A stretch of DNA of 64,000 nt, from assembly GCF_015056685.1 (NCBI RefSeq), contig NZ_SVFW01000006.1, positions 44,522 through 108,521 on the forward strand. The letters run 5' to 3'. This document shows positions 4,892-63,937 of the stretch, in pieces; position 1 is the stretch's first letter; each line of letters opens with the position of its first letter. Position numbers and translations under genes: made by a program. Source of the DNA: Butyrivibrio sp. GTDB lineage: Bacteria; Bacillota; Clostridia; Lachnospirales; Lachnospiraceae. The notes under the pieces were generated by a model, which saw nothing but the letters and a program-made list of their open reading frames with translations, did no database searches and was not told the origin of the DNA.

Positions 4892-4955
4892 GAAGACAGA
4901 GGGACGGTTCTAATGACTTGTTTTTATAAGTCATTAGAACCGTCCCTCTGTCTTC
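4892..4955. repeat. REP-like long perfect hairpin (28-bp stem), member of a small dispersed repeat family
   Basis: GAAGACAGAGGGACGGTTCTAATGACTT gttttta TAAGTCATTAGAACCGTCCCTCTGTCTTC. The core GGGACGGTTCTAATGACTTA recurs at 62410-62449, 63687-63739 and 63742-63795. Confidence 0.8.
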
Positions 4956-5057
4956 TTGATGTAGCATTTTATAAAAATGTTAGATTTATAGTGTTAATTA
5001 ATATAGTGAAACGTACGATAAACAGATAAGTAATAGTCTTTTTATTAAGGGTGATTA

Positions 5058-17602: not shown

Positions 17603-17675
17603 TTATCCAATAAAAAGGGAGAGTATTATGGTTTTAAACATTTTGTTTTTGCCAGAATACTCTCTCTTTGTATGA

Positions 17676-17737
17676 GGGTAAGCACCTAGCGGTGTGGCTG
17701 GTCATTATGCCTCGGGCTCTGAATCCAGGAACAGTAG
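17676..17737 (-). ncRNA. Truncated left arm (5' third only) of the structured arm motif
   Basis: The reverse complement aligns with the first ~60 nt of the other arms (CTACTGTTCCTGGATTCAGAGCCCGAGGC..CCAGCCACACCGCTAGGTGCTTACCC). The remainder is deleted next to TTTGTAT. Confidence 0.5.
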
Positions 17738-17759
17738 GGGTGGCTACTTTTCTGACTAT

Positions 17760-17996
17760 GGGTAATTTTTTAATATTCCGACCTTTTACCCGTGTTTTGT
17801 TAGTACCCATGGGCAATATTTAATTTTCTCTGCCTTTTACCCGAGCTATCAGACATTCATTGGGTAAATCTATTATTTTTTTCATATTTGCCCAAGCTTG
17901 TCCAATAATTCTCGGGTAATAATCATCTCTTTTATTTCCTTACCCAAATCATACACTAACTCATGGGTAAAAACCTGCATTTTGTTCTTTTTGCCC
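17760..17996. repeat. Array of five hairpin units, GGG(T/C)AA-N20-22-TT(A/G)CCC, period 51-52 bp
   Basis: GGGYAA begins at 17760, 17811, 17862, 17914 and 17965. Partners are at 17786, 17837, 17888, 17940 and 17991. Confidence 0.8.
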
Positions 17997-18170
17997 GCAA
18001 TGCTCTTTAAAAATGGACAATACGAGACCATGATTTGAGACCAAAACACTTTTATTGGCACTTTCAATTGGTCCATATAAGATAAATCAGGCTGTTTATA
18101 ATAGAGTTATCTTATATACACAGTTGGCCGAAGACATTGCAACGCAGAGCCGCTTATGCCTCTATGTTAT

Positions 18171-18256
18171 GCACGCCGTCCAGGGAAAATCTATTCTAGC
18201 GTGCCTTGCATCCATATACCTTGCACGCAATCTGATAATAATTCACTTTAGCGTGC
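18171..18256. repeat. Two GCACGC-N22-GCGTGC hairpin units, period 52 bp
   Basis: GCACGC at 18171 and 18223; GCGTGC at 18199 and 18251. Confidence 0.7.
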
Positions 18257-18288
18257 ACGAAGCATCTGTTCAGGACAGTCATATCCTA

Positions 18289-18483
18289 CTACTGTTCTCG
18301 GATTCAGAGCCTGAGGCAGAAAAAACCAGCCACACCGCAGGTGCTTGCCCTTTACTGGTTCTGATGGAAACGCTACAATACCAGGTCCGACGGTGAGTGA
18401 AGAATTACTGTTCCCATCATCCTCACCGTCGGCAAGGTATAGACGGCGTTTCCATCAGGTTCAGTCAAGGGTGGCGCACGCAG
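18289..18483 (+). ncRNA. Right arm of copy 1: ~195-nt candidate structured RNA (unknown class)
   Basis: Starts CTACTGTTCTCGG and ends GGTGGCGCACGCAG. Nested helices carry perfect compensatory variants relative to the other copies (CTGATGGAAACGC / GCGTTTCCATCAG). Confidence 0.55.
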
Positions 18484-18584
18484 CCGATTCACTTACGCAC
18501 ATACAAAAGGAGAGTATTTTAGCAAGTATTAAACACTTATCCACATAAAAGGTAGATGGAGAGTATTCTAATATGCAGTAAATT

Positions 18585-18658: not shown

Positions 18659-20392
18659 TTATGAAGGCATTTCTTCCAATGTGAAGAATGCCATTTTTTC
18701 GTTGAGGGTTTCAGCCATGTCACGAAGATCATTTGCTGCACCACTTATGAGAGAAAATGTAGCATTGAGTTCTTCCATTGAAGCATTTGTTTCCTCTGTA
18801 GAAGCGGCATTTTGCTGAGATATAGCAGAAAGCTCTGTGATAATGTCTGAAAATCCTGCCTTAAGCTCATTAAGAAGATGAATTTTCTTGGATATTACCT
18901 TTGTAGAATTGTCTACATTGTTGACGTTTTCTACAACTGCATCCATATCATCTTTTGTAGTATTGAGCTGAGTATTCTGCTCCTGCATGCTCTTTCCGAG
19001 CTCTTCAATAATTTCAACGTTCTTCTGTGACTCTGCAACAAGATTTTCCACTATTTCCTTGATTGAAACGGCAGCGTCCTTTGACTGCTTTGAAAGGTTA
19101 CCAATTTCAGTAGCAACTACTGAGAAACCTTTTCCGTATTCGCCAGCTCTTGCTGCCTCAATTGAAGCGTTAAGAGAAAGAAGATGTGTCTGTTCAGCAA
19201 TTGCAGTAATCATGTTTGAAGCTTCTGCGATGCTCTTAACTGAATCATTAGTAGTGCGAATCTGTGTATGAATGTCTTTCATTGAAGTCATGACATCTTT
19301 ATTTTTACCCATAAGGTCATGAAGTGTATTTACAGTTCTCTGAGCACCTGACATCATTTCATTAGCAGAATTTGAAAGGTCTTCTATTTTTTCTGTAATT
19401 TCGTCAATACTGTCGCCCATCTGGTTAGTATTAGCTACAGAATTTTCCATGCTCTCAGCCTGAGAAGCAGCTCCACGGCTGATATCCTCTACAGCAGCTG
19501 TTATCTGTTCAGCTACATTAGAAGCAGATTCAGCAGAAGATGCAAGCTTTTCACCGGAAAGAGTTACATCATCTGAAAGCTTTTTAGTTGCGCTGATTAC
19601 ATCCTGAAGTTTGTCACGAACCATAGCGGAACTTTCTGCAATTACACCAAGCTCGTCCTTACGGTTGAATGTACGATCATTGATGTAGAAAGAAAGTTCA
19701 CCATCTTCAAGATTTTTAAGACCTGATACAATATCGCGGATTGATCTTGATGAAGTGCTTATAAGATAACGAGCTACACCAAAGTTGAACAGGAAAAAAC
19801 CAATGAATGTAAAAATAATAGAACGAAGCGCTGCGTCCATATTTGCTTTTACGATAGTAGTATCACGTCCTGCAAAAACCATACCAACAACAGAACCATC
19901 AGAGTTCTTAAGTGGAAGATAGTATGCGTACCAATCCTGACCTGCAATCTCAAAATTTGAAGCAAGATATTCATTTCCACTTGTGAGAACTTCGCTTACA
20001 ACTGTCTCTGAAGCTTTTGTTCCTTCCATTCGCTGACCTGTAGTTGCGTCTGTAAGAGATGTAACAAAACGTGTATCACCATAAAATAATGTATAGTGCA
20101 TACCGGTTTTCTCATGGAGTGCATCAAGCTGTGCCTGGTAAATGTCGTGAACTGCTACGTCACCTTTCATAAGCTGGCCATCCTCTGAAAGAGTCCAGTC
20201 ACCTTCAAACTGATTGGATACTTCATCATTTAAAAGAACTGCCGCTGCATGCAAACCCTCTGAAAAAGAAGTGAGATAAGCTTTCTGAATGTTTCTAAAG
20301 CCTATGATACCAACACATGCTGCCATAAGAAGGGCAAGAACTGATGCGATAACAATTATAGTGCGAACCATGTTTCTGTTTTTTGTTTTCAT
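18659..20392 (-). CDS. Methyl-accepting chemotaxis protein with Cache-like sensor domain
   Basis: N-terminal TM helix, an extracytoplasmic ~170-aa sensor, a second TM helix, HAMP, and a conserved MA signalling hairpin ([27 protein letters not shown]). Confidence 0.9.
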
Positions 20393-20494: not shown

Positions 20495-20575
20495 AGGTGC
20501 AACTGGCTGACATTTTAAAGTCCCTATAGCTTTGCGCCACAGGCTTTCGCCTGCTTTGCCAAATGTTAAATTTTA
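20495..20575 (-). promoter_or_regulatory. c-di-GMP-I (GEMM-I) riboswitch aptamer in the MCP leader
   Basis: The minus strand reads UUUGGCAAAGCAGGCGAAAGCCUGUGGCGCAAAGCUAUAGGGAC...CAGCCAGUUGCACC. It has the GGCAAA element, a P1 hairpin with a GAAA tetraloop, the (G/A)CGCAAAGC core and the AGCCAGUUGC 3' element of the GEMM-I consensus. Confidence 0.75.
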
Positions 20576-31632: not shown

Positions 31633-32334
31633 ATGGCAAAGGCTGCTACAGTACCGGTAAGAGTCGAAAAAGTTCTGGCCGGGCGAAAGATAATTGAGCT
31701 TAATTATCAGGAAATATATGATCATAAGCCCAACATTTATAAGTGGATAAAAAGGGTGTTTGATATAGTCGCATCAAGCGTCGCGATTATCATTCTCTCG
31801 CCCATATTTATAATGACAGCTCTGGCTATCTTTTTGGAGGATGGCGGTCCTGTTTTCTTTACCCAGCAAAGAGCGGGTAAAGACATGAAGAGCTTCAAAA
31901 TATATAAGTTCAGAAGTATGTACAAAAATGCTGAGGCTCAGTTTGAGAGAATGCAGGCACAGAATGAACAGACAGGTCATGCTTTTAAAATCAAGAATGA
32001 TCCAAGAGTTACCCACGTGGGGAAGTTCATAAGGCGCTACTCTATAGATGAACTTCCACAGCTTTTTAACATCATAAAGGGCGACATGAGCATTGTAGGA
32101 CCAAGGCCAATACTTACATCTCAGATGGAGGCATGCAATGCTTACGAGAAACAGCGAACCATCGTAAAGCCCGGACTTACCTGCTACTGGCAGGTATGTG
32201 GGAGAGCCAAGATCAAATGGGATAAGTGGGTTGAACTTGATCTTCAGTATATTCAGGATATGAGCATTGCAAAAGACATAGAGCTAATTTTCCGTACATT
32301 TCCGGCAATCTTCGGCCAGGACGGAGCGTACTAA
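31633..32334 (+). CDS. Undecaprenyl-phosphate sugar phosphotransferase (bacterial sugar transferase, WbaP/EpsL-like)
   Basis: Contains PRVTHVGKFIRRYSIDELPQLFNIIKGDMSIVGPRP. Confidence 0.85.
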   Translation: MAKAATVPVRVEKVLAGRKIIELNYQEIYDHKPNIYKWIKRVFDIVASSVAIIILSPIFIMTALAIFLEDGGPVFFTQQRAGKDMKSFKIYKFRSMYKNAEAQFERMQAQNEQTGHAFKIKNDPRVTHVGKFIRRYSIDELPQLFNIIKGDMSIVGPRPILTSQMEACNAYEKQRTIVKPGLTCYWQVCGRAKIKWDKWVELDLQYIQDMSIAKDIELIFRTFPAIFGQDGAY

Positions 32335-32346
32335 AAAAGTAGAATG

Positions 32347-32379
32347 GGCCTACACAGATAGATTGTGTAGGTCTTTTTT
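32347..32379 (+). terminator. Terminator of the sugar transferase gene
   Basis: CCTACACA ... TGTGTAGG hairpin followed by TTTTTT. Confidence 0.7.
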
Positions 32380-32395
32380 ATTGTGATTTAAGAAA
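32374..32395 (+). repeat. Left copy of the 22-bp direct repeat bracketing element copy 2
   Basis: TTTTTTATTGTGATTTAAGAAA, identical to 33453-33474. Confidence 0.85.
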
Positions 32396-32430
32396 TGTAT
32401 TCCTGTGTATAAACGTAAGTATTGCGCTTA

Positions 32431-32625
32431 CGTACGCCACCATTGACTGAACCTGAGAATAACGCCGTCTATACCTCGCCGACGGTGAGGATGATGGGAA
32501 CAGTAGTTAGATTCATGCACCGTCGGATTCAGCATTATAGCGTTTTCCTCAGAACCCGTCAATGGCTAGCACCTGGCGGTGTGGCTGGGAATTATTGCCT
32601 CGGGATCCAATTCCGAGAACAGTAG
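32431..32625 (-). ncRNA. Left arm of copy 2 (structured arm motif, minus sense)
   Basis: The reverse complement aligns base-for-base with 33167-33361 and with the arms of the other copies. Confidence 0.55.
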
Positions 32626-32643
32626 GGGGTACTTTCTATCTAC

Positions 32644-33100
32644 GGGTAATTTTTTAATTTTCTGACCTTTTGCCCGTATTTTCATAGTATCCATGGGCAA
32701 TATTTAATTTTCTCTGCCTTTTACCCGAGTTATCAAACAATCATTGGGTAAATCTATCATTATTTTCATATTTACCCAAGCTTATTCAATAATTCTCGGG
32801 TAAAAATCATCTCTTTTATTTCTTTACCCTCGCGTCATGTCGAAAAAGATGTACAAGACATGAATAATAGAATAAATGCCAGATCTCATGCCAAACGATT
32901 CTATTCAAGGCATGAAATTATGAGAAAAATCTGACACAGCATGTCGAATTACAAAACAAAGACATGGTATCTGAGTCAAAATCACTAACAACATGTCTGA
33001 ACCACTATACAAAGCATGTAATACTTGCAAAAAATCCTCAAATCATGTCAGAAGCCTATGCACAAGGCATGAAAATCGAGAAAAATCTCTCGCAGCATGC
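32644..33100. repeat. Array of four GGGYAA/TTACCC units followed by five to six CATG(T/C)C/G(A/G)CATG units, period 51-53 bp
   Basis: Unit starts: 32644, 32695, 32746, 32798, 32836, 32887, 32940, 32992, 33044, 33095-33096. Confidence 0.8.
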
Positions 33101-33166
33101 TATAGCCAGGTAAATCTTTATGTTTTCAATATCCCAAGTCTCCAGCTGATTCAATTTCAGCCATCT

Positions 33167-33361
33167 CTACTGTTCTCGGAGTCAGAGCCAGAGGCAATTG
33201 TACCAGCCACACCGCAAGGTGCTTGCCATTGACGTGGTCTGAGGAAAACGCTACAATGCTGCATCCGACTGTGAGATAGAATCTACTGTTCCCATCATCA
33301 TCACCGTCGGCGAGGTATAGACGGCGCTTTCCGCAGGTTCAGTCAATGGTGGCGTACGCAG
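33167..33361 (+). ncRNA. Right arm of copy 2 (structured arm motif, plus sense)
   Basis: Runs from CTACTGTTCTCGGAG to CAGTCAATGGTGGCGTACGCAG. Confidence 0.55.
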
Positions 33362-33452
33362 CCGCAATCTAAAATTTTTAGAGAGTTAGAGAAGTCACTT
33401 ACGCATATACAAAATGTAAGTATCCTTCGAAAGCTTTGCATCACCTTTATAA

Positions 33453-33474
33453 TTTTTTATTGTGATTTAAGAAA
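33453..33474 (+). repeat. Right copy of the 22-bp direct repeat bracketing element copy 2
   Basis: TTTTTTATTGTGATTTAAGAAA. Confidence 0.85.
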
Positions 33475-33522
33475 GTTATTTCTTTTTAATGATAGTTAAT
33501 GTTCATTTAATTGTATTTTTTC

Positions 33523-33531: not shown

Positions 33532-33608
33532 TAGACTAGAAGTGTAACTGTGTGGGATGGCTTTTGATATAAAAAGCCAGAGGTTCTCTTTGAAAGAGAG
33601 GTAAATTG

Positions 33609-34742
33609 ATGAAACTAAGTAGATTATTTGCGGTCGCTTTAAGCGGATTGCTGTTTATTCAGGCACCGGTTGTTGTGTTGGCAGAGGAATCTTATCAGGA
33701 TGGTAATTTGTATAAGTGTGATGATGAAAAAGAAGACTACTTATTTGTAGGGCATAATGGTTTTTTCTTATCTGAAGATGAACATCAAGATTATGAAAAA
33801 GTTTATGATACAGGAAGCGCTTTTAAAGAAGTCACAGATGATAGTGCCGATGGCAAAGAATATGGAGCAGGCTATGCCTTTGATTGTCAACAGAGTCCAA
33901 GTTCCGGCTATGTTGGTGGACTAACATCAAATTTGGTTGGGTTTGAGACGACCTTGTCAGAAGACCAAGTGGTAAAACTTCAATATATCGGTAATGAAAC
34001 TGATAAACCTTATAGATTGAGCCTGACAACTGCTTCATCCGAATCAGGAACAAGTGGTGGTGAAGAAGGACAATCATCAGGAGAATCAGGAGAACAGGGA
34101 ACGACTACAGAGCCAATTACAGAACCCACTTCGGAGTCAACTACAGAACCTACCACAGAACCTACTACGGAGCCAACTACAGAGCCAACTGTAGAGCCAG
34201 CACAGCCAGAAACTCCAGCAGAAGAAAATGTAGAGCCTACACCAGTTGTTGTAACTGAAAATACCAATAATAGTCAGCCTGCAGCACCAGCTGATGAACC
34301 ACAGCAGCCAGCAAATCAGGAACCTCAGGCGCCTGATACGACAGGTAGGATCAATATAATAAGCACAGCAGTAGGCAATGCACTTCCAACTACTGAACTT
34401 GGAAACGCAGAGGTTCCTACCAGAACATTGTCTCTTGATATATTTAGTATTACTCCTGCCCAAATGACAGCAGCAGTAAGCGATACAGTAAAAAGTGCGC
34501 CAGCAGATGGAAATGTAGTTATTGAAACAAATACTATCTCATGCCTTGATAATAATATGGTTCAGGCGTTTGCACAGAGACCGGACGTTGCTATCAGCAT
34601 AGTATTCAAAAATAAAGAAGGACAAAAACTAAAAGTAACAATTCCTGCCGGATATCCTGTTACAACTCTTCTTGATGAAAATGGTTACTGCGGATATATG
34701 CACCTTGTAGATATTTTTGGTGCTACTGTTCTGTCAGAGTAA
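33609..34742 (+). CDS. Secreted protein with (TEPT)n linker, unknown function
   Basis: Signal peptide MKLSRLFAVALSGLLFIQAPVVVLA, a TEPTTEPTTEPTTEPTVEP repeat, and AGAGAGG before ATG 33609. Confidence 0.65.
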   Translation: MKLSRLFAVALSGLLFIQAPVVVLAEESYQDGNLYKCDDEKEDYLFVGHNGFFLSEDEHQDYEKVYDTGSAFKEVTDDSADGKEYGAGYAFDCQQSPSSGYVGGLTSNLVGFETTLSEDQVVKLQYIGNETDKPYRLSLTTASSESGTSGGEEGQSSGESGEQGTTTEPITEPTSESTTEPTTEPTTEPTTEPTVEPAQPETPAEENVEPTPVVVTENTNNSQPAAPADEPQQPANQEPQAPDTTGRINIISTAVGNALPTTELGNAEVPTRTLSLDIFSITPAQMTAAVSDTVKSAPADGNVVIETNTISCLDNNMVQAFAQRPDVAISIVFKNKEGQKLKVTIPAGYPVTTLLDENGYCGYMHLVDIFGATVLSE

Positions 34743-34818: not shown

Positions 34819-34896
34819 ATTATCAATTCACAATTGTTAAGGGTATACAAAGCATTCGAGGGGGAGTGGTTTGGATAAACGTAAGTATTGCGCTCC

Positions 34897-35088
34897 TATA
34901 CGCCACCATTGACTGAACCTGAGGAAAACGCCGTCTATACCTCGCCGACGGTGAGAATGATGGGAACAGTAATTCTTCACTCACCGTCGGCCCCAGCATT
35001 GTAGCGTTTTCATCAGAACCAGTAAAGGGCAAGCACCTAGCGGTGTGGCTGTTTTTTCTGCCTCAGGCTCAAAATCCAGGAACAGTTG
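34897..35088 (-). ncRNA. Left arm of copy 3 (minus sense)
   Basis: The reverse complement aligns with the other arms. It looks chimeric: the 5' half resembles arm 1R and the 3' half resembles arm 2L. Confidence 0.5.
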
Positions 35089-35110
35089 AGGCGGACGCTT
35101 TTCTACCTAC

Positions 35111-35353
35111 GGGCAATTTTTTAATTTTCCGACCTTTTACCCGTGTTTTATTAGTGCCCATGGGTAATATTTAATTTTCTCTGACTTTTACCCGAGTTAT
35201 CAAACAATCATTGGGTAAATCTATCATTATTTTCATATTTACCCAAGCTTATTCAATAATTCTCGGGTAAAAATCATCTCTTTTAGTTCTTTACCCAAAT
35301 CATTCACTAAACTAACTCATGGGTAAAAACCTGCATTTTGTTCTTTAGTACCC
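35111..35353. repeat. Five GGGYAA-N20-22-TTACCC hairpin units, period 51-52 bp (last interval 56)
   Basis: Starts at 35111, 35162, 35213, 35265 and 35321. Confidence 0.8.
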
Positions 35354-35585
35354 GCAATGCTCTTTAAAAAAATGGGTCAAGTCCTATTTTATAAGCTAAA
35401 TCAGGCTGTTTATAATAGAGTTATCTTATATGCACAGCTGGCCGTAGACATTGCAATGCATAGTCGCTTATACCTCTTTGTTTTGCATGCTTGATCATAC
35501 ATCTATCTTTTAGGCAGTAAGGCAATGTATGTTAAATTGAAGAGATAAGCTCCTCATATCGAACTTGCAAATTATCATCTATCCT

Positions 35586-35783
35586 TTACTGTTCTCGGAT
35601 TCAGAGCCCGAGGCACTTAAAACCAGCCACACCGAAGGTGCTTGCCCTTGACGGGTTCTGAGGGAAACGCTACAATGCTGAATCCGATGGTGAAAGAATC
35701 TATCTACTGTTCCCATCATCCTCACCGTCGGCTCGCAGGCCAGGGCGTTTTCCCTCAGGTTCAGTCAGGGGTGGCGTACAGAG
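35586..35783 (+). ncRNA. Right arm of copy 3 (plus sense)
   Basis: Runs from TTACTGTTCTCGGATTCAGAGCCCGAGGC to CAGTCAGGGGTGGCGTACAGAG. It carries compensatory changes and G.U pairs. Confidence 0.55.
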
Positions 35784-35914
35784 CCAATTTACTTATGTTT
35801 TTCAATCTTCATAATCAACAAAATTCATCTATTATTCTTATCAAATTTACACTATAGACTAACGCAATATCGCATGAGTACAATTAATTCATCGATATTC
35901 TTGGGGAGGTCTAT

Positions 35915-36808: not shown

Positions 36809-39328
36809 ATGAAAATTTGTAAAAAGTTAAACAGCATAAAAAAGACTGATTACGGATATCTGGCTGAACTTGACAAAGCATACATGAAGATATGTTTTTT
36901 AACCGACAGCATTGTCAGAATTAAAGTATCTTTTGGAGATATTGCAGATGCTGATAAGCCTGAAGGATCATACGTGCTTCAGATGACTGGCTGGGATGAC
37001 AGACTTGATTTCCTTTTTGAAGACAGAAAGCATGTAACTCCACTTAAAGCTCTATTAGAGGAAAAAGAAAATGAGATATGTCTGAAGACTGATTCAGTAT
37101 GTCTTTTGCTGGAAAAGAACCCGCTTAGCATAAAGCTTGTGGATAAAGATGGCGATGTCATTTATGAAGGTGTAAAAGGAAGCCCATTTATAAAGGATGC
37201 TAATAACAGAGTAACCGGTTACACCAGAATGAATGAGGACGACTGCTTCTATGGTTTTGGTGAAAAGACTGGTCCAATAAACAAGAATAAGGACTTTATC
37301 AGAGAACGAGCCACCGATTGCTGGAGCTACGATCCTGAAAAGTGCGACACCATGTATAAGCACATTCCTTTTTATTTAAGGCTCGACAGGCAGGCAAGGA
37401 AGGCAACGGGACTTTTTTATAACAATTTCCATGAATCAGTATTTAATATGGGAAAAGAAAAGAGTAATTACTGGCCAAGATACACATACTTCCAGGCTGA
37501 CGGCGGCGATCTTGATCTTTTTGTATTCACCGGCCCATCCATAAAAAATGTGCTGGATGATTATACAGCTCTGACGGGAAGACCGGCTCTTTTACCTAAA
37601 AGAGCTCTTGGCTATCAGGGGTCATCAATGTACTATTCGGAGCTTGAAAAAGACTCTGACAAGGCGCTTATTGAATTTGTGGAGACTGTCAGAAGAAAGG
37701 GATTCCCAATTGACGGATTCCATCTGTCTTCCGGCTATACATCATACGACAATAAGAGGTGCGTATTTACCTGGAATAAAGAAAGGTTCCCTGATCCAAA
37801 GGGATATTTTGCAAAGATGAACGAGCTTGGGGCGCAGAACGTTCCTAATGTTAAGCCGGGAATTCTTTTGATGCATCCAAAGTTTGATGAGTTCAAAAAG
37901 GAAGGCGTTTTTGTAAGAGACAGTGAAAATGATAAAGAACCGGCTGTAGGTTCCTGGTGGGGAGGCCCCGGGGCATTTTGGGATTACACAAGCCCTAAGG
38001 GAAGAGAACTGTGGAAAAAATATCTTACAGAGACTGTTATTGATATTGGAACCAATTCTATTTGGGATGATAACTGCGAATATGACAGTCTTTTGGACCA
38101 CGACAGCAAGTGCGACTACGACGGCGAGGGCGGCAGGATCGGCGAGTTCAAGCCTGTTATGTGCACCATCATGAGTAAGCTTGCCTGTGAAGCGGTAAAA
38201 GAGCATGACAAGAGCAAAAGACCTTATGTTGTTTGCCGAAGTGGTAGCAGCGGAATTCAGAAATACGCTCAGAACTGGGTTGGTGATAACTGCACAGCGT
38301 GGAGAACTTTAAAACACAATATACCGACCATGCTTGGAGTGGGACTATCAGGCCAACCTAATACAGGCTGTGATATTGGCGGTTTTGCGGGACCGGCACC
38401 TGAAGAAGAGCTCTTTGTCAGATGGGTGCAGCATGGCATATTCCAGCCAAGATTTTCAATTCATTCGGCAAGTAGTGACAACACTGTAACAGAACCGTGG
38501 ATGTATTCAAGACAGACTGACAGGATAAGAAATGCAATCCTGCTTAGATATCGCATGCTTCCTCATTTCTATTCACTGGAGTATGAAGCTCATGTGACCG
38601 GTGCTCCGATAATGAGGCCTCTTGTCTATGAGTTCCAAAATGATGAGAACGTCTATGAAGAAAACTTTGAGTTTATGCTTGGAAAAGACCTGCTTGTGGC
38701 AAATGTTCTTGAAAAGGGACAGATAGTAAAAGATATTTATCTTCCTGAAGGCTGTAAATGGTTTGATCTTGAGAACAACTTTAAATGCTACGAAGGTGGA
38801 CAGGTGATATCTATTCCTGTAAATATCAACTCTATCCCGAGATTCTTGAGGGAGGGTGCAATACTGCCAACGGCTCTCAATCAGCCTATGAATGCGGAAA
38901 AAGACCCGGTGACGGATTTAAGCCTCACATTTGTTCCGTATACAGATGGAAAAGAGCATGTATCAGAGTATATATATTACGATGATGACGGCTGCAGCAA
39001 TGATTTCGAGGACGGAGTATACAGAAAGACCACTATTACCATGAGTGGCAGCGGTGTAATAGATATCTCATTTAAGGGCGAGGGCACTTATAAAGATACT
39101 GTGGAAACAGTGGTGGCGACAGTTGTGTATAAAGAGAAAGCGCCTTTGTGGATATCCTTTGAAGACAAGAAGCTAACTCACATTTTGGACAGGGAAAAGT
39201 TTGAAGCATCCGATAACTGCTGGTATTATAGCGAGACCTTGAGAGCAGCACTCATTAAGTTTAGGAATCCAAAGCACGATGCCAGCCTCAAAGTGTCATT
39301 TGAAGAGTTTGATCTTATTGGGATGTGA
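36809..39328 (+). CDS. Glycoside hydrolase family 31 (alpha-glucosidase/alpha-xylosidase type)
   Basis: 839 aa with a GH31 catalytic region (KPGILLMHP, IWDDNCEY, TGCDIGGFAG). Confidence 0.85.
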   Translation: MKICKKLNSIKKTDYGYLAELDKAYMKICFLTDSIVRIKVSFGDIADADKPEGSYVLQMTGWDDRLDFLFEDRKHVTPLKALLEEKENEICLKTDSVCLLLEKNPLSIKLVDKDGDVIYEGVKGSPFIKDANNRVTGYTRMNEDDCFYGFGEKTGPINKNKDFIRERATDCWSYDPEKCDTMYKHIPFYLRLDRQARKATGLFYNNFHESVFNMGKEKSNYWPRYTYFQADGGDLDLFVFTGPSIKNVLDDYTALTGRPALLPKRALGYQGSSMYYSELEKDSDKALIEFVETVRRKGFPIDGFHLSSGYTSYDNKRCVFTWNKERFPDPKGYFAKMNELGAQNVPNVKPGILLMHPKFDEFKKEGVFVRDSENDKEPAVGSWWGGPGAFWDYTSPKGRELWKKYLTETVIDIGTNSIWDDNCEYDSLLDHDSKCDYDGEGGRIGEFKPVMCTIMSKLACEAVKEHDKSKRPYVVCRSGSSGIQKYAQNWVGDNCTAWRTLKHNIPTMLGVGLSGQPNTGCDIGGFAGPAPEEELFVRWVQHGIFQPRFSIHSASSDNTVTEPWMYSRQTDRIRNAILLRYRMLPHFYSLEYEAHVTGAPIMRPLVYEFQNDENVYEENFEFMLGKDLLVANVLEKGQIVKDIYLPEGCKWFDLENNFKCYEGGQVISIPVNINSIPRFLREGAILPTALNQPMNAEKDPVTDLSLTFVPYTDGKEHVSEYIYYDDDGCSNDFEDGVYRKTTITMSGSGVIDISFKGEGTYKDTVETVVATVVYKEKAPLWISFEDKKLTHILDREKFEASDNCWYYSETLRAALIKFRNPKHDASLKVSFEEFDLIGM

Positions 39329-39347
39329 GCGATATAAGGATTCAAGT

Positions 39348-39383
39348 AGATACAAAGCTGTGCTTGCACAAAGCTTTGTATCT
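39348..39383 (+). terminator. Hairpin terminator after the GH31 gene
   Basis: AGATACAAAGCT ... AAGCTTTGTATCT followed by ATTTG (a weak T-run). Confidence 0.5.
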
Positions 39384-39629
39384 ATTTGAAGACTGAACGG
39401 ACATGAGGAAGTAGCACGATAGTGCGGATTCCGAATGAGCGTAGGATTGCGAGAACGAAGTGTAGCAATCCGTATATCGCGAAACAAATAATTTGTTGTG
39501 CAACGTGCATATAATTTTTAAGGAATATCAATATTTTGTGTCCAATATTTACAGAGGTACAAAATAACGATATAATAAATTATGGTATTTTTATACAAAA
39601 GCCTGCAATTAAACTTAGGAGGGAAAGAA

Positions 39630-62307: not shown

Positions 62308-62341
62308 TGGATCAATAAGAAATATATGTTGTAGATTAACG

Positions 62342-62383
62342 AGAGGATTACTGCAAACCTGTTTGGTTACGCAGTAATCCTCT
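62342..62383 (+). terminator. Terminal hairpin of copy 4, doubling as the pepO terminator (faces inward)
   Basis: AGAGGATTACTGC ... GCAGTAATCCTCT followed by TAATTTGTAT. Confidence 0.6.
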
Positions 62384-62409
62384 TAATTTGTATATGCGTA
62401 AGTGAGTTA

Positions 62410-62449
62410 GAAGACACTGGGACGGTTCTAATGACTTATGAAGACACTG
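62410..62449. repeat. REP-like unit (partial) nested in the left arm extension of copy 4
   Basis: GAAGACACTGGGACGGTTCTAATGACTTATGAAGACACTG shares its core with 4892-4955. Confidence 0.7.
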
Positions 62450-62487
62450 ATATGTATAAGCTTAAGGAATTGGTAAATGCTTAGTTC

Positions 62488-62679
62488 CGTACGCCACCAT
62501 TGACTGAGCCTGAGGAAAACGCCTTGGCCATAGAGCCGACGGTGAGGATGATGGGAACAGTAGATTATCACGCACCGTCGGATTCAGCATTGTAGCGTTT
62601 TCCTCAGAACCCGTCAATGGCAAGCACCTACGGTGTGGCTGGGTGTTATTGCCTCAGGCTCCAAATCCGAGAACAGTAG
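62488..62679 (-). ncRNA. Left arm of copy 4 (minus sense)
   Basis: The reverse complement aligns with 63460-63655, and all long-range helices are perfect. Confidence 0.55.
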
Positions 62680-62680
62680 T

Positions 62681-63321
62681 GGTGGCTACTTTCAAGGATA
62701 TGTGTGACTATATGTCTGCGTCTTTCAATGTATAGAGAGCGAAGATTATGTTTTGGAAACATAGCCCGTTTTTTGAACTTACAACACCAGTCGTCAAGTT
62801 TTTTGACTTGCGTTTTTGGGCATATACGGCCTTTTTTGAAGTTACCACACCATTATATAGATGATCATATGTTTCAGTTTACTCATCCAATGGATGTGGC
62901 AATCCACTTTTTTCTCGTATATGCCCATTTTCGCTTCCTGAAAATTTTGTCGATGGATGTGTTAACTTAAAAGTATGACTATATACCCAGTTCCTCATGT
63001 TCAATTCATTCCATACGTCGTGAAGAATAATGGTTTGGGCATATAGCGCTTTGGAGAGCTTCCAGCCACCTTTGATTCTTACTATTTTGGGCATATAGCA
63101 GCTTTTTGCGAGGCCAGCCACCCCTCAAATGGGCATATAGGCTGATTTCAAGCCTCTGGCCACCCGTTAAAATGGTGGCTGTGGACGGATAATTACCGTA
63201 TATGCCCAATCGTCTGCGATAAAACTATGACGAGGGGTGGCTGCAAGCCTAAAATCAGGCTATATACCCAAAATCGGTTTTTTTACGGGTGGCTGAGGTA
63301 TTGAAAACGAGCTATATGCCC
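62681..63321. repeat. Array of about ten bipartite modules: box A (T)GGGCATATAG and box B CCAGCCACC, in both orientations
   Basis: Forward box A at 62818, 63037, 63089 and 63131. Reverse box A (TATAT(G/A)(C/T)C(C)) at 62709, 62918, 62980, 63199, 63261 and 63313. Same-orientation spacings are 42, 52, 52, 62 and 62 bp. Confidence 0.75.
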
Positions 63322-63459
63322 AAAGACAATGCTTTCGGCTCTCTAAACTACTACTACCTATAGAGTGGACACATACAAACTTCCTTTAGCCCCACTTTCG
63401 TATGCAACATGCTGCATGCGAAAACTGGCGCGCCAGCGTTTTCTTAAAAGCAGCCGCAT

Positions 63460-63655
63460 CTACTGTTCTCGGAATTGGAGTCAGAGGCATTTTAAACCAG
63501 CCACACCGCTAGGTGCTTGCCATTGACGGGTTCTGAGGAAAACGCTACAATTCTGAATCCGACGGTGCTAGAAAATCTACTGTTCCCATCATCATCACCG
63601 TCGGCAGAGCTGGCAAGGCGTTTTCCTCAGACTCAGTCAATGGTGGCGTACGCAG
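63460..63655 (+). ncRNA. Right arm of copy 4 (plus sense), reference copy for the structural model
   Basis: Helices: CCATTGAC 63520-27 with GTCAATGG 63636-43; CTGAGGAAAACGC 63533-45 with GCGTTTTCCTCAG 63618-30; CCGACGGTG 63559-67 with CACCGTCGG 63596-604. Confidence 0.55.
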
Positions 63656-63686
63656 TTACAACCTATACTTTTCTAAGAAGTTAAAT

Positions 63687-63795
63687 GGACGGTTGAGAGA
63701 ATTGCTTTTAATAAGTCATTAGAACCGTCCCGGTGTCTTGTGGACGGTTGAGTGACTTGCTTTTAATAAGTCATTAGAACCGTCCCGGTGTCTTC
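63687..63795. repeat. Two tandem REP-like units nested in the right arm extension of copy 4
   Basis: GGACGGTTGAG(A/T)GA(A/C)TTGCTTTTAATAAGTCATTAGAACCGTCCCGGTGTCTT occurs twice (63687-63739 and 63742-63795). Confidence 0.75.
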
Positions 63796-63825
63796 TTTCA
63801 ACATACTTACGCTTATACAAATAAA

Positions 63826-63867
63826 GAGGAATACTGCGTAACCAAACAGGTTGGCAGTATTCCTCTC
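63826..63867 (-). terminator. Terminal hairpin of copy 4 facing inward from the right-hand gene
   Basis: AGAGGAATACTGC ... GGCAGTATTCCTCT. On the minus strand it is followed by TTTATTTGTAT. Confidence 0.5.
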
Positions 63868-63937
63868 GTTAATCTCTTATGCGTAAAAAACTTAATAAGG
63901 GTTGAAATTTAATTTATCACTTGCGATAGAAAAATTT

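Follow-up and report, generated by a model that had tools for sequence, protein, structure and literature searches.

Helically phased arrays of paired boxes in a family of intergenic repeat elements of Butyrivibrio

The array and the element that contains it

The stretch of DNA analysed here (the window) comprises 64,000 nucleotides (nt) of Butyrivibrio sp. (NCBI RefSeq assembly GCF_015056685.1, contig NZ_SVFW01000006.1, positions 44,522 to 108,521), and the feature under study is an array of short paired boxes at window positions 32644-33100. The array forms the centre of a non-coding, intergenic element of about 1-1.5 kilobases (kb), which is present in the window in four copies, designated here A to D (Table 1). 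The element consists of two inverted arms of about 230 base pairs (bp), each with an outward-directed sigma70-like promoter sequence, and of a mosaic centre enclosed between them. Seven full arms and one truncated arm are found in the window, and all of them can be aligned with one another. Outside of the arm, and always adjacent to it, lies the box TATATGCGTAAGT, beyond which many copies contain a strong hairpin of about 20 bp followed by CCCTAATCTACAG; when read inward, this hairpin looks like a terminator of incoming transcription. The centres of copies A, B, and C have in common a half-array of GGGYAA units, which is about 90% identical unit for unit, and differ in their other halves, while the centre of copy D is composed of unit types quite unlike those of the remaining three. 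Copy B, which contains the studied array, has no open reading frame (ORF) of 80 amino acids or more.

In copy B, units of the type GGGYAA-N20-TTRCCC start at positions 32644, 32695, 32746, and 32798, and units of the type CATGYC-N15/16-GRCATG at positions 32836, 32887, 32940, 32992, and 33044, with a degenerate unit near 33096. The steps between them are of 51-53 bp, except for a single step of 38 bp where the two unit types join. The region contains 16 perfect inverted hexamers with gaps of 14-22 nt, as compared to 1.0 +/- 1.2 (maximum 8) in composition-preserving shuffles, and all four matches to CATGYC-N14-17-GRCATG in the window, where 0.04 are expected, fall inside this array. Tandem Repeats Finder did not report an array here. 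When units are compared with each other within arrays, the 12 box positions are 88-96% identical, while the identity of loops (34-40%) and spacers (30-38%) is near random at the base composition of the arrays. Since the hexamers alternate every 26 bp or so, the divergent arrangement TTACCC-N19-GGGTAA can be read equally well as the convergent one, GGGTAA-N20-TTACCC. An earlier reading of these letters, made without database searches (the original prediction), had described the ten unit positions with their steps, the conservation of the inverted hexamers only, and the sharing of GGGYAA units between copies A, B, and C, with additional GCACGC-N22-GCGTGC units 52 bp apart in copy A. All this is borne out by re-reading of the unit coordinates, with the tenth unit being degenerate.

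The same prediction held that the stems covary, and here our results are different. The window has 13 GGGYAA units, in which the variable positions of the two boxes (T/C and A/G) combine into three C.A and four T.G mismatches and into no C-G pair; none of the 13 units is compensated, and the combination GGGCAA..TTGCCC does not occur. In the CATGYC array of copy B, the change in the unit at 32887 is compensated and those in the units at 32992 and 33044 are not, and among the double changes of this unit family in all fetched loci two are compensated versus seven that are uncompensated. At the position flanking GGATAA in another unit type, the combinations A-C (26 units), G-T (22), A-T (17), and G-C (8) reveal no Watson-Crick correlation. 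One-sided box changes yield G.T as frequently as A.C, with no strand bias. There is no base-pair selection within the arrays.

Unit types, spacing, and arms across the family

A search of species-representative genomes with the arm pattern gave 75 true loci, all of them in Butyrivibrio (B. proteoclasticus P18, sp. Su6, sp. AE2015, and two metagenome-assembled genomes (MAGs)), and two further matches that are due to chance. Rumen metagenomes provided 20 additional loci. A profile search yielded 99 distinct full arms, from genomes of the B. proteoclasticus group, as well as 24 complete elements, the centres of which measure 479-1163 bp. Many loci are at contig ends, as expected of a repeat that breaks assemblies, and the family would account for the breaks of draft Butyrivibrio assemblies at such loci. 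No matches were found by BLAST in plasmid and phage collections, and no description of these repeats was found in the literature, including the B316 genome paper.

Other unit types of the centres are GGATAA-N20-TTATCC, (C)ATGACCTA-N20-TAGGTCAT(G), TACGGATAAGA-N17-TCTTATCCGTA, and GCACGC-N22-GCGTGC. In most types, including those of the window apart from the two-box type of copy D, the boxes are mutual inverted repeats. The most abundant type, with 473 motif copies, consists of GGGCATATA followed 26 bp later by CAGCCACC; these boxes are not complementary and cannot form a hairpin, and thus a hairpin cannot be the common principle of the units. What recurs is the design, which is shared by at least six box pairs of unrelated sequence. 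The gap of GGATAA units is N20 in 158 of 182 cases, the offset of the GGGCATATA/CAGCCACC boxes is 26 bp in 140 of 157, and extra half-sites in direct orientation occur about 11 bp off. The units are confined to the elements (187/189 lie within 1300 nt of an arm), and the box motifs, which could there have indicated a regulon or a decoy role, are absent from the genomes outside the elements.

The periods of the units are 51-52 bp for GGGYAA, 51-53 bp for CATGYC, 73-75 bp for ATGACCTA, 63-66, 71-75, and 84 bp for GGATAA, and 41-43, 51-53, 61-64, 102-104, and 114-115 bp for the two-box type. When pooled (41-43, 51-53, 61-66, 71-75, 84, 102-105, and 114-115 bp), they correspond to 4, 5, 6, 7, 8, 10, and 11 turns of 10.5 bp, with almost no units between these classes and with the same classes in the metagenome copies. 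Four random spacings match the observed 10-11 bp coherence in 0.7% of trials (p=0.007). Additionally, AA/TT dinucleotides in the 24 centres show a sharp peak at 10.5 bp (z=15), while the unit periods produce only weak signals at the neighbouring harmonics; this periodicity exceeds the 95th percentile of window controls in 12 of 24 centres, and in copy B it exceeds all 400 controls. The sites are placed at integral helical turns, as in phased site arrays on double-stranded DNA.

These results support the proposal of the original prediction that geometry is under selection, given the constant box offset of about 26 bp and the periods quantised at multiples of 10.5 bp. Its fixed period of about 52 bp applies to the centre type of copy B and not to centres with periods of 42, 63, 74-75, or 84 bp. 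Homologous arrays devoid of a conserved period or of inverted hexamers, by which the idea of constraint would have been undermined, were not encountered: the period varies only by whole helical turns. The mirror-like composition noticed in copy B, T-rich on the left and A-rich on the right, extends to the family, since 22 of 24 centres have a T-rich left third and 17 of 24 an A-rich right third. In contrast, the proposed selection on interchangeable stems rather than on sequence finds no support, as box sequences are conserved, compensation within families is absent, G.T and A.C mismatches are equally common, and the commonest unit class is non-complementary.

The outward sigma70-like promoter sequence is a constant feature of the full arms, in the window as well as family-wide. 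Of 99 arms, 81 have TTGACG as the -35 box; the spacer measures 17 bp in 91 of 98 cases, and the -10 box (TACAAT in 85 arms, TAAAAT in 12, and TATAAT in 1) varies only at the third position, which is the least important one. Such a conservation pattern matches that of real promoters, and the arm promoters are presumably active. The promoter is embedded in an imperfect palindrome of 124 nt, which the arm profile matches on the opposite strand as well. In the predicted hairpin of the arm, a segment further downstream is base-paired with the -35 box and spacer, and the -10 box is placed in an internal loop opposite a non-conserved stretch. The apical hairpin CCGACGGTG...CACCGTCGG is invariant and has an invariant loop of 20 nt. 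Four pairs of the arm hairpin are compensated (AU 86/CG 8; GC 84/UA 10; GC 82/GU 10/AU 4; and AU 76/GC 10/GU 9), with the compensated variants stemming largely from one sub-lineage and recombinants. On the promoter-sense strand, 309 G.T versus 11 A.C cells were counted, or 56 versus 10 when only departures at pairs of Watson-Crick consensus are considered, in a structure predicted on that same strand. This suggests that the promoter-sense strand of the arm folds, as RNA or as single-stranded DNA; when folded as DNA, the two senses of the arms behave similarly.

Of the 201 columns of the arm core, 71 are invariant in the 99 copies and 128 are conserved in at least 95%. On average, arms of one genome are 86.6% identical and arms of different genomes 85.7%, the closest relative of an arm is usually found in another genome, and the two arms of one element are no more similar to each other than arms of different elements. 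Judging by their sequences, the arms are old and under constraint. Canonical terminators downstream of the arm promoters are present in only 8 of 97 cases, and the assignment of the arm as the start of a self-contained small RNA gene is thus unsupported. The motif CTACTGTTC occurs twice in each arm, about 116-120 bp apart (e.g., at window positions 33167-33175 and 33283-33291). One of these copies precedes the -35 box, and the other falls within the invariant apical loop, past the putative start site. With its C-rich sequence, CUGUUCCCAUCAUCCUC, this loop resembles seed regions in regulatory RNAs of Firmicutes.

Proposed phased binding sites and alternative explanations

The conserved box sequences, the box offset, the helix-locked period, and the phased A/T tracts together point to double-stranded DNA that is recognised by protein and regularly bent or wrapped, and not to hairpins of RNA or single-stranded DNA. 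We hold, with moderate confidence, that the array represents phased, dimer-type binding sites on curved double-stranded DNA and is the core of a roughly two-fold symmetric, conserved, promoter-bearing interspersed element. Of the two possibilities left by the original prediction, stem-loops and phased dimer-binding sites, the second is thus favoured and the first disfavoured. We infer protein binding and a biological role from the sequence as follows. The boxes would serve as docking sites of sequence-specific DNA-binding proteins, bound as dimers at inverted boxes, and these docking sites would be aligned along the curved double helix. A cooperative, wrapped or bridged nucleoprotein complex would form between the two divergent promoters, and it could silence, insulate, or otherwise set the state of these promoters and of the flanking transcription units. 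Candidate roles include silencing or insulation of the divergent promoters, demarcation of a transcription-unit boundary, and scaffold formation, while the outer hairpin of about 20 bp would terminate incoming transcription.

Several points weigh against this interpretation. As the units occur only inside the elements, no regulon points to a candidate binding protein. To recognise the six or more box pairs, several specificities or some uncommon mode of recognition would be required, and with an offset of 26 bp the boxes of a unit lie on opposite sides of the B-DNA helix, an arrangement uncommon for simple dimers. The copies are related by descent, which makes the counts non-independent, and the phasing argument is carried by about 11 family/period classes. 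A constant helical phase between the arrays and the arm promoters was not found, which argues against simple activator-type upstream sites. Finally, the arm hairpin has a G.T excess on its outward strand, and both halves of the centres are A-rich when read outward; these features would be compatible also with transcripts that are initiated within the centre and run outward.

The last point is the basis of an RNA explanation, which we regard as unlikely. According to it, the halves of the centre are transcribed outward as a long A-rich non-coding RNA that ends in a structured arm, and the functional units are stems of 6-9 bp with loops of about 20 nt, acting as a protein sponge, a processing substrate, or a scaffold. 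Besides the outward A-richness on both sides, the compensated pairs of the arm hairpin and the prevalence of G.U over A.C in the outward sense are in its favour, and the array region folds better than its shuffles, with z values of -4.5 and -4.0 on the two strands, which are similar and do not discriminate. The arrays themselves, however, lack compensated changes, apart from a few in the CATGYC family, and have equal numbers of G.T and A.C mismatches. Moreover, the commonest unit has the same 26-bp offset of its boxes although they are not complementary, and transcription into RNA gives no reason for a period quantised at 10.5 bp or for the AA/TT phasing. A convincing promoter inside the centres was not found. 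At the gathering score there was no Rfam match in or near the elements, so that no structured non-coding RNA family of this database could be assigned, a permissive scan of 32300-33500 gave only chance-level matches with E values of at least 1.9, and a tRNA and tmRNA scan gave none. Judged by pairing maintained through compensated substitutions and by a strand-specific G.U excess, these units do not qualify as a hairpin array of RNA or of single-stranded DNA, on account of the uncorrelated GGATAA flanks, the equality of G.T and A.C, the lack of any compensation among the GGGYAA units of the window, and the non-complementary two-box units.

We also give a low probability to the more far-reaching possibility that the elements are a device of chromosomal architecture or insulation, in which a two-fold symmetric complex on the phased, curved arrays is combined with Frpo-like hairpin promoters in the arms that could also fire from single-stranded DNA. 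Frpo/ssi are single-stranded DNA promoters known from conjugative plasmids (PMC11541004; Masai and Arai 1997, as cited there). The likeness concerns the arms only, namely a long, imperfectly paired hairpin with a complementary region opposite the -35 box and spacer; a single arm strand could mimic a duplex promoter, with the -10 box predicted to be in an internal loop. It is a likeness of hairpin layout, with no sequence similarity known, and unlike Frpo the arms are chromosomal, occur in about 100 copies and not in a plasmid leading region, and have a promoter that would also work as ordinary duplex DNA. With the arms inverted, whichever strand is exposed in replication, repair, or DNA transfer could carry one active copy. 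If true, this would make the family, with its roughly 100 copies, a new class of bacterial genome-organising element and not selfish junk.

Decidedly unlikely, in our view, is that the units are single-stranded DNA hairpins for a recombinase or transposase, and the element a selfish one mobilised in trans, as known from the repetitive extragenic palindromic (REP) sequences and bacterial interspersed mosaic elements (BIMEs) with their REP-associated tyrosine transposases (RAYTs), from IS200/IS605 ends, or from integron attC sites. REP sequences and BIMEs are characterised by short-looped palindromic units of about 35 bp, alternating orientation, and a cognate RAYT (Y1 transposase). Alternating unit orientation and box sequences conserved by family, as in REP families, are indeed seen here. 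Centres are mosaics of common modules in either orientation, which is consistent with reshuffling, and elements are located directly after terminators. In sp. AE2015, an element begins right after a terminator (...CTTTG|TATATGCGTAAGT) between flanks that are 96% identical to the window, where this site contains only a small unrelated palindrome (4893-4956), which indicates presence/absence polymorphism. In 18 of 20 elements, no target-site duplication of at least 9 bp was found; the arm ends show nothing consistent, and at the ends of the outermost hairpins no duplication can be seen. Against such a mobile element, the loops of 15-22 nt on stems of 6-9 bp are unlike those of REP, IS200/IS605, and attC hairpins, two-box units that lack complementarity and sites in helical phase are at odds with it, and arms that are equally alike within and between genomes indicate no recent burst. 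Copies are also found at orthologous sites of different species. Sp. Su6 has an element with a different centre type at the site orthologous to copy B, with arms 84-87% identical and with blocks extending from the arm into the adjacent gene 74-78% identical. In the MAG RGIG9232, the orthologue of copy A has its GGGTAA array adjoining the arm on the side of the chemoreceptor gene, opposite to the window; apparently, its centre was inverted by recombination between the inverted arms, or the MAG assembly was mis-joined. No gene of an associated enzyme and no autonomous parent element was found in or next to the elements, although no genome-wide RAYT search was made; the only transposase found is an IS3-family one in locus L054. 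There, a pair of IS3-family transposase genes (with HTH and rve domains; L054:2957-4341) is located between a truncated and a full arm of one element and is most likely a secondary insertion.

A functionless, decaying tandem duplication of one unit with an inverted repeat, which is now drifting, is very improbable. It would account for the almost randomised loops and spacers, for the degenerate units of the CATGYC array, and for centre types gained or lost between species at one site, but drift would erode the boxes (88-96% identical) as fast as the remainder (30-40%), and a spacing and period held to +/-1 bp in independent families and a design that recurs with at least six unrelated box pairs do not agree with it. 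The probability not taken up by these explanations is left to something else.

Related systems and neighbouring features

In their genomic behaviour, the elements described here resemble mosaic interspersed repeats of the BIME and NIME type; for the array geometry and the promoter-in-hairpin arms, we found no described counterpart. Intergenic repeat families already known in bacteria include REP/BIME, enterobacterial repetitive intergenic consensus (ERIC) sequences, and Neisseria intergenic mosaic elements (NIMEs). BIMEs of enterobacteria are built of REP sequences and bind the host proteins IHF and gyrase. Like BIMEs and NIMEs, the Butyrivibrio elements are non-coding, intergenic, and multi-copy, lie just after genes and terminators, and are mosaics of short conserved palindromic units in alternating orientation with variable linkers and with several unit families per genome. 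They differ in being far larger (1-1.5 kb) and bounded by inverted, promoter-bearing arms of 230 bp, in having boxes 26 bp apart with no tight hairpin and with periods in helical turns, in containing one non-palindromic unit class, and in having no known RAYT-like partner, within the above limit of the search.

With plasmid partition centromeres and iterons, the arrays share tandem short sequence-specific sites, often inverted repeats, that are spaced by whole helical turns. The sopC centromere of F consists of 12 repeats of 43 bp, each with an inverted repeat, and parC of R1 is likewise a partition centromere; such arrays seed the cooperative assembly of a wrapped or bridged protein-DNA complex, which in some cases surrounds a promoter. 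The Butyrivibrio elements differ in occurring in dozens of chromosomal copies, with several box specificities and near-random linkers, and partition or replication genes are not adjacent to them.

Transposons with terminal inverted repeats (TIRs) and miniature inverted-repeat transposable elements (MITEs) are recognised by their inverted termini, a target-site duplication, and a related autonomous element. Inverted termini, lack of coding capacity, high copy number, and presence/absence polymorphism between close relatives are common to MITEs and the Butyrivibrio elements. The latter, however, have no consistent target-site duplication, no autonomous parent, and no transposase of their own in any copy, and their copies are old, have diverged to the same extent inside one genome as across genomes, and show strong constraint on particular columns, so that this assignment was rejected. 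The arrays are also not clustered regularly interspaced short palindromic repeats (CRISPR), which have identical direct repeats of 23-50 bp and unique spacers of similar length and are usually near cas genes; here, only 6-9 bp at the repeat ends are conserved, the middle has drifted, and the annotated flanking genes are housekeeping ones and not cas. Integron attC sites, including clusters of attC sites lacking integrases (CALIN), have RYYYAAC ... GTTRRRY core sites and extrahelical bases, with one site per gene cassette. The arrays are not attC sites either: their boxes are GGGYAA/TTRCCC, CATGYC/GRCATG, and others, and there are no cassette ORFs between units. Resemblances of TTATCC(C/T)ACA to a DnaA box, of TGTCGAA to a Spo0A box, and of GGATAA to a Gin/Hin half-site were dropped because of misfits in register or orientation.

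What is rare in this family is the combination of strong column-specific purifying selection over about 100 old copies, built-in putative divergent promoters, and arrays that conserve only two short boxes, their 26-bp offset, and a helix-locked period, with interchangeable box specificities. In the rumen fibre-degrading Butyrivibrio proteoclasticus group, this combination is a clear mark, at the sequence level, of a protein complex that depends on DNA geometry, and any proteins that bind the boxes could reveal a new system of nucleoid structuring, insulation, or transcription control.

Table 1. Coordinates of the elements and of associated repeats in the window.
Feature	Position	Strand	Remarks
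Copy A	17643-18507 (17615-18507 with outer hairpin)	.	left arm truncated
Copy A, outer hairpin	17615-17665
Copy A, truncated left arm	17643-17760
Copy A, five GGGYAA units	17760-17996
Copy A, two GCACGC-N22-GCGTGC units	18171 and 18223
Copy A, right arm	18269-18507		promoter 18351-18379 (+)
Copy A orthologue, alignment	17675-17801 and 18289-18574		aligned with L010:5076-5424
Copy B	32404-33383		holds the studied array
Copy B, left arm (module M, towards centre)	32404-32641	+	nhmmer arm profile, alignments
Copy B, left terminal box TATAAACGTAAGT	32408-32420
Copy B, left-arm outward sigma70-like promoter, TTGACG-17-TATAAT	32534-32562	-	family-wide conservation
Copy B, GGGYAA-N20-TTRCCC array	32644-32829	.	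4 units, period 51-52 bp, + strand T-rich
Copy B, CATGYC-N15/16-GRCATG array	32836-33100	.	5 units and degenerate sixth, period 51-53 bp, + strand A-rich
Copy B, right arm (module M)	33147-33383	-	nhmmer arm profile
Copy B, right-arm outward promoter-like site, TTGACG-17-TACAAT	33229-33257	+	faces gene 33606-34742
Copy B, right terminal box	33397-33409
Copy C	34870-35805	.
Copy C, left arm	34870-35111		promoter 35026-34998 (-)
Copy C, four GGGYAA units	35111-35296
Copy C, right arm	35569-35805		promoter 35648-35676 (+)
Copy D	62458-63679 (62333-63875 including outer modules)	.
Copy D, outer hairpins	62340-62385 and 63822-63868
Copy D, boxes	62391-62403 and 63805-63817
Copy D, left arm	62458-62701
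Copy D, centre	62689-63450		two-box units, GGGCATATA then CAGCCACC 26 bp on; direct on the left, inverted on the right
Copy D, right arm	63438-63679
Small palindrome	4893-4956		solitary, after terminator
Small palindrome	62405-62450
Small palindrome	63686-63794		two tandem 55-bp copies

Copy B is flanked by a direct repeat of 22 bp, TTTTTTATTGTGATTTAAGAAA, at 32367-32388 and 33447-33468. Among complete elements, a flanking direct repeat was otherwise found only in locus L014 (20 bp), which indicates that there is no family-wide target-site duplication. The small palindromes of Table 1 belong to a second repeat family, a near-perfect palindrome of about 64 bp (GAAGACAGAGGGACGGTTCTAATGACTT...). 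At copy D, they sit between box and arm on both sides, and the palindrome seems to be a REP/MITE-like element in its own right, which shares its landing spot with the large element.

The genes neighbouring the elements encode a corrinoid adenosyltransferase, a chemoreceptor, ClpB, a sugar transferase, an esterase, and a GH31 enzyme; no functional link was found among the annotated flanking genes, which are unrelated housekeeping genes. The only gene between copies B and C (33606-34742, + strand) is located directly downstream of the putative outward promoter of the right arm of copy B. Its product has a signal peptide and no Pfam match, and the gene contains a Thr/Glu/Pro-rich region of 12-bp repeats (34104-34199). 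About 100 nt upstream of the chemoreceptor gene (18659-20392, - strand), whose product has MCP signalling and Cache domains, there is a c-di-GMP-I (cyclic di-GMP) riboswitch at 20495-20570 (- strand; 54.5 bits), which suggests c-di-GMP control of this chemotaxis receptor. A full-length Clostridiales-1 RNA (39330-39479, + strand; 108 bits) lies directly after the gene of the GH31 glycoside hydrolase (36809-39328).

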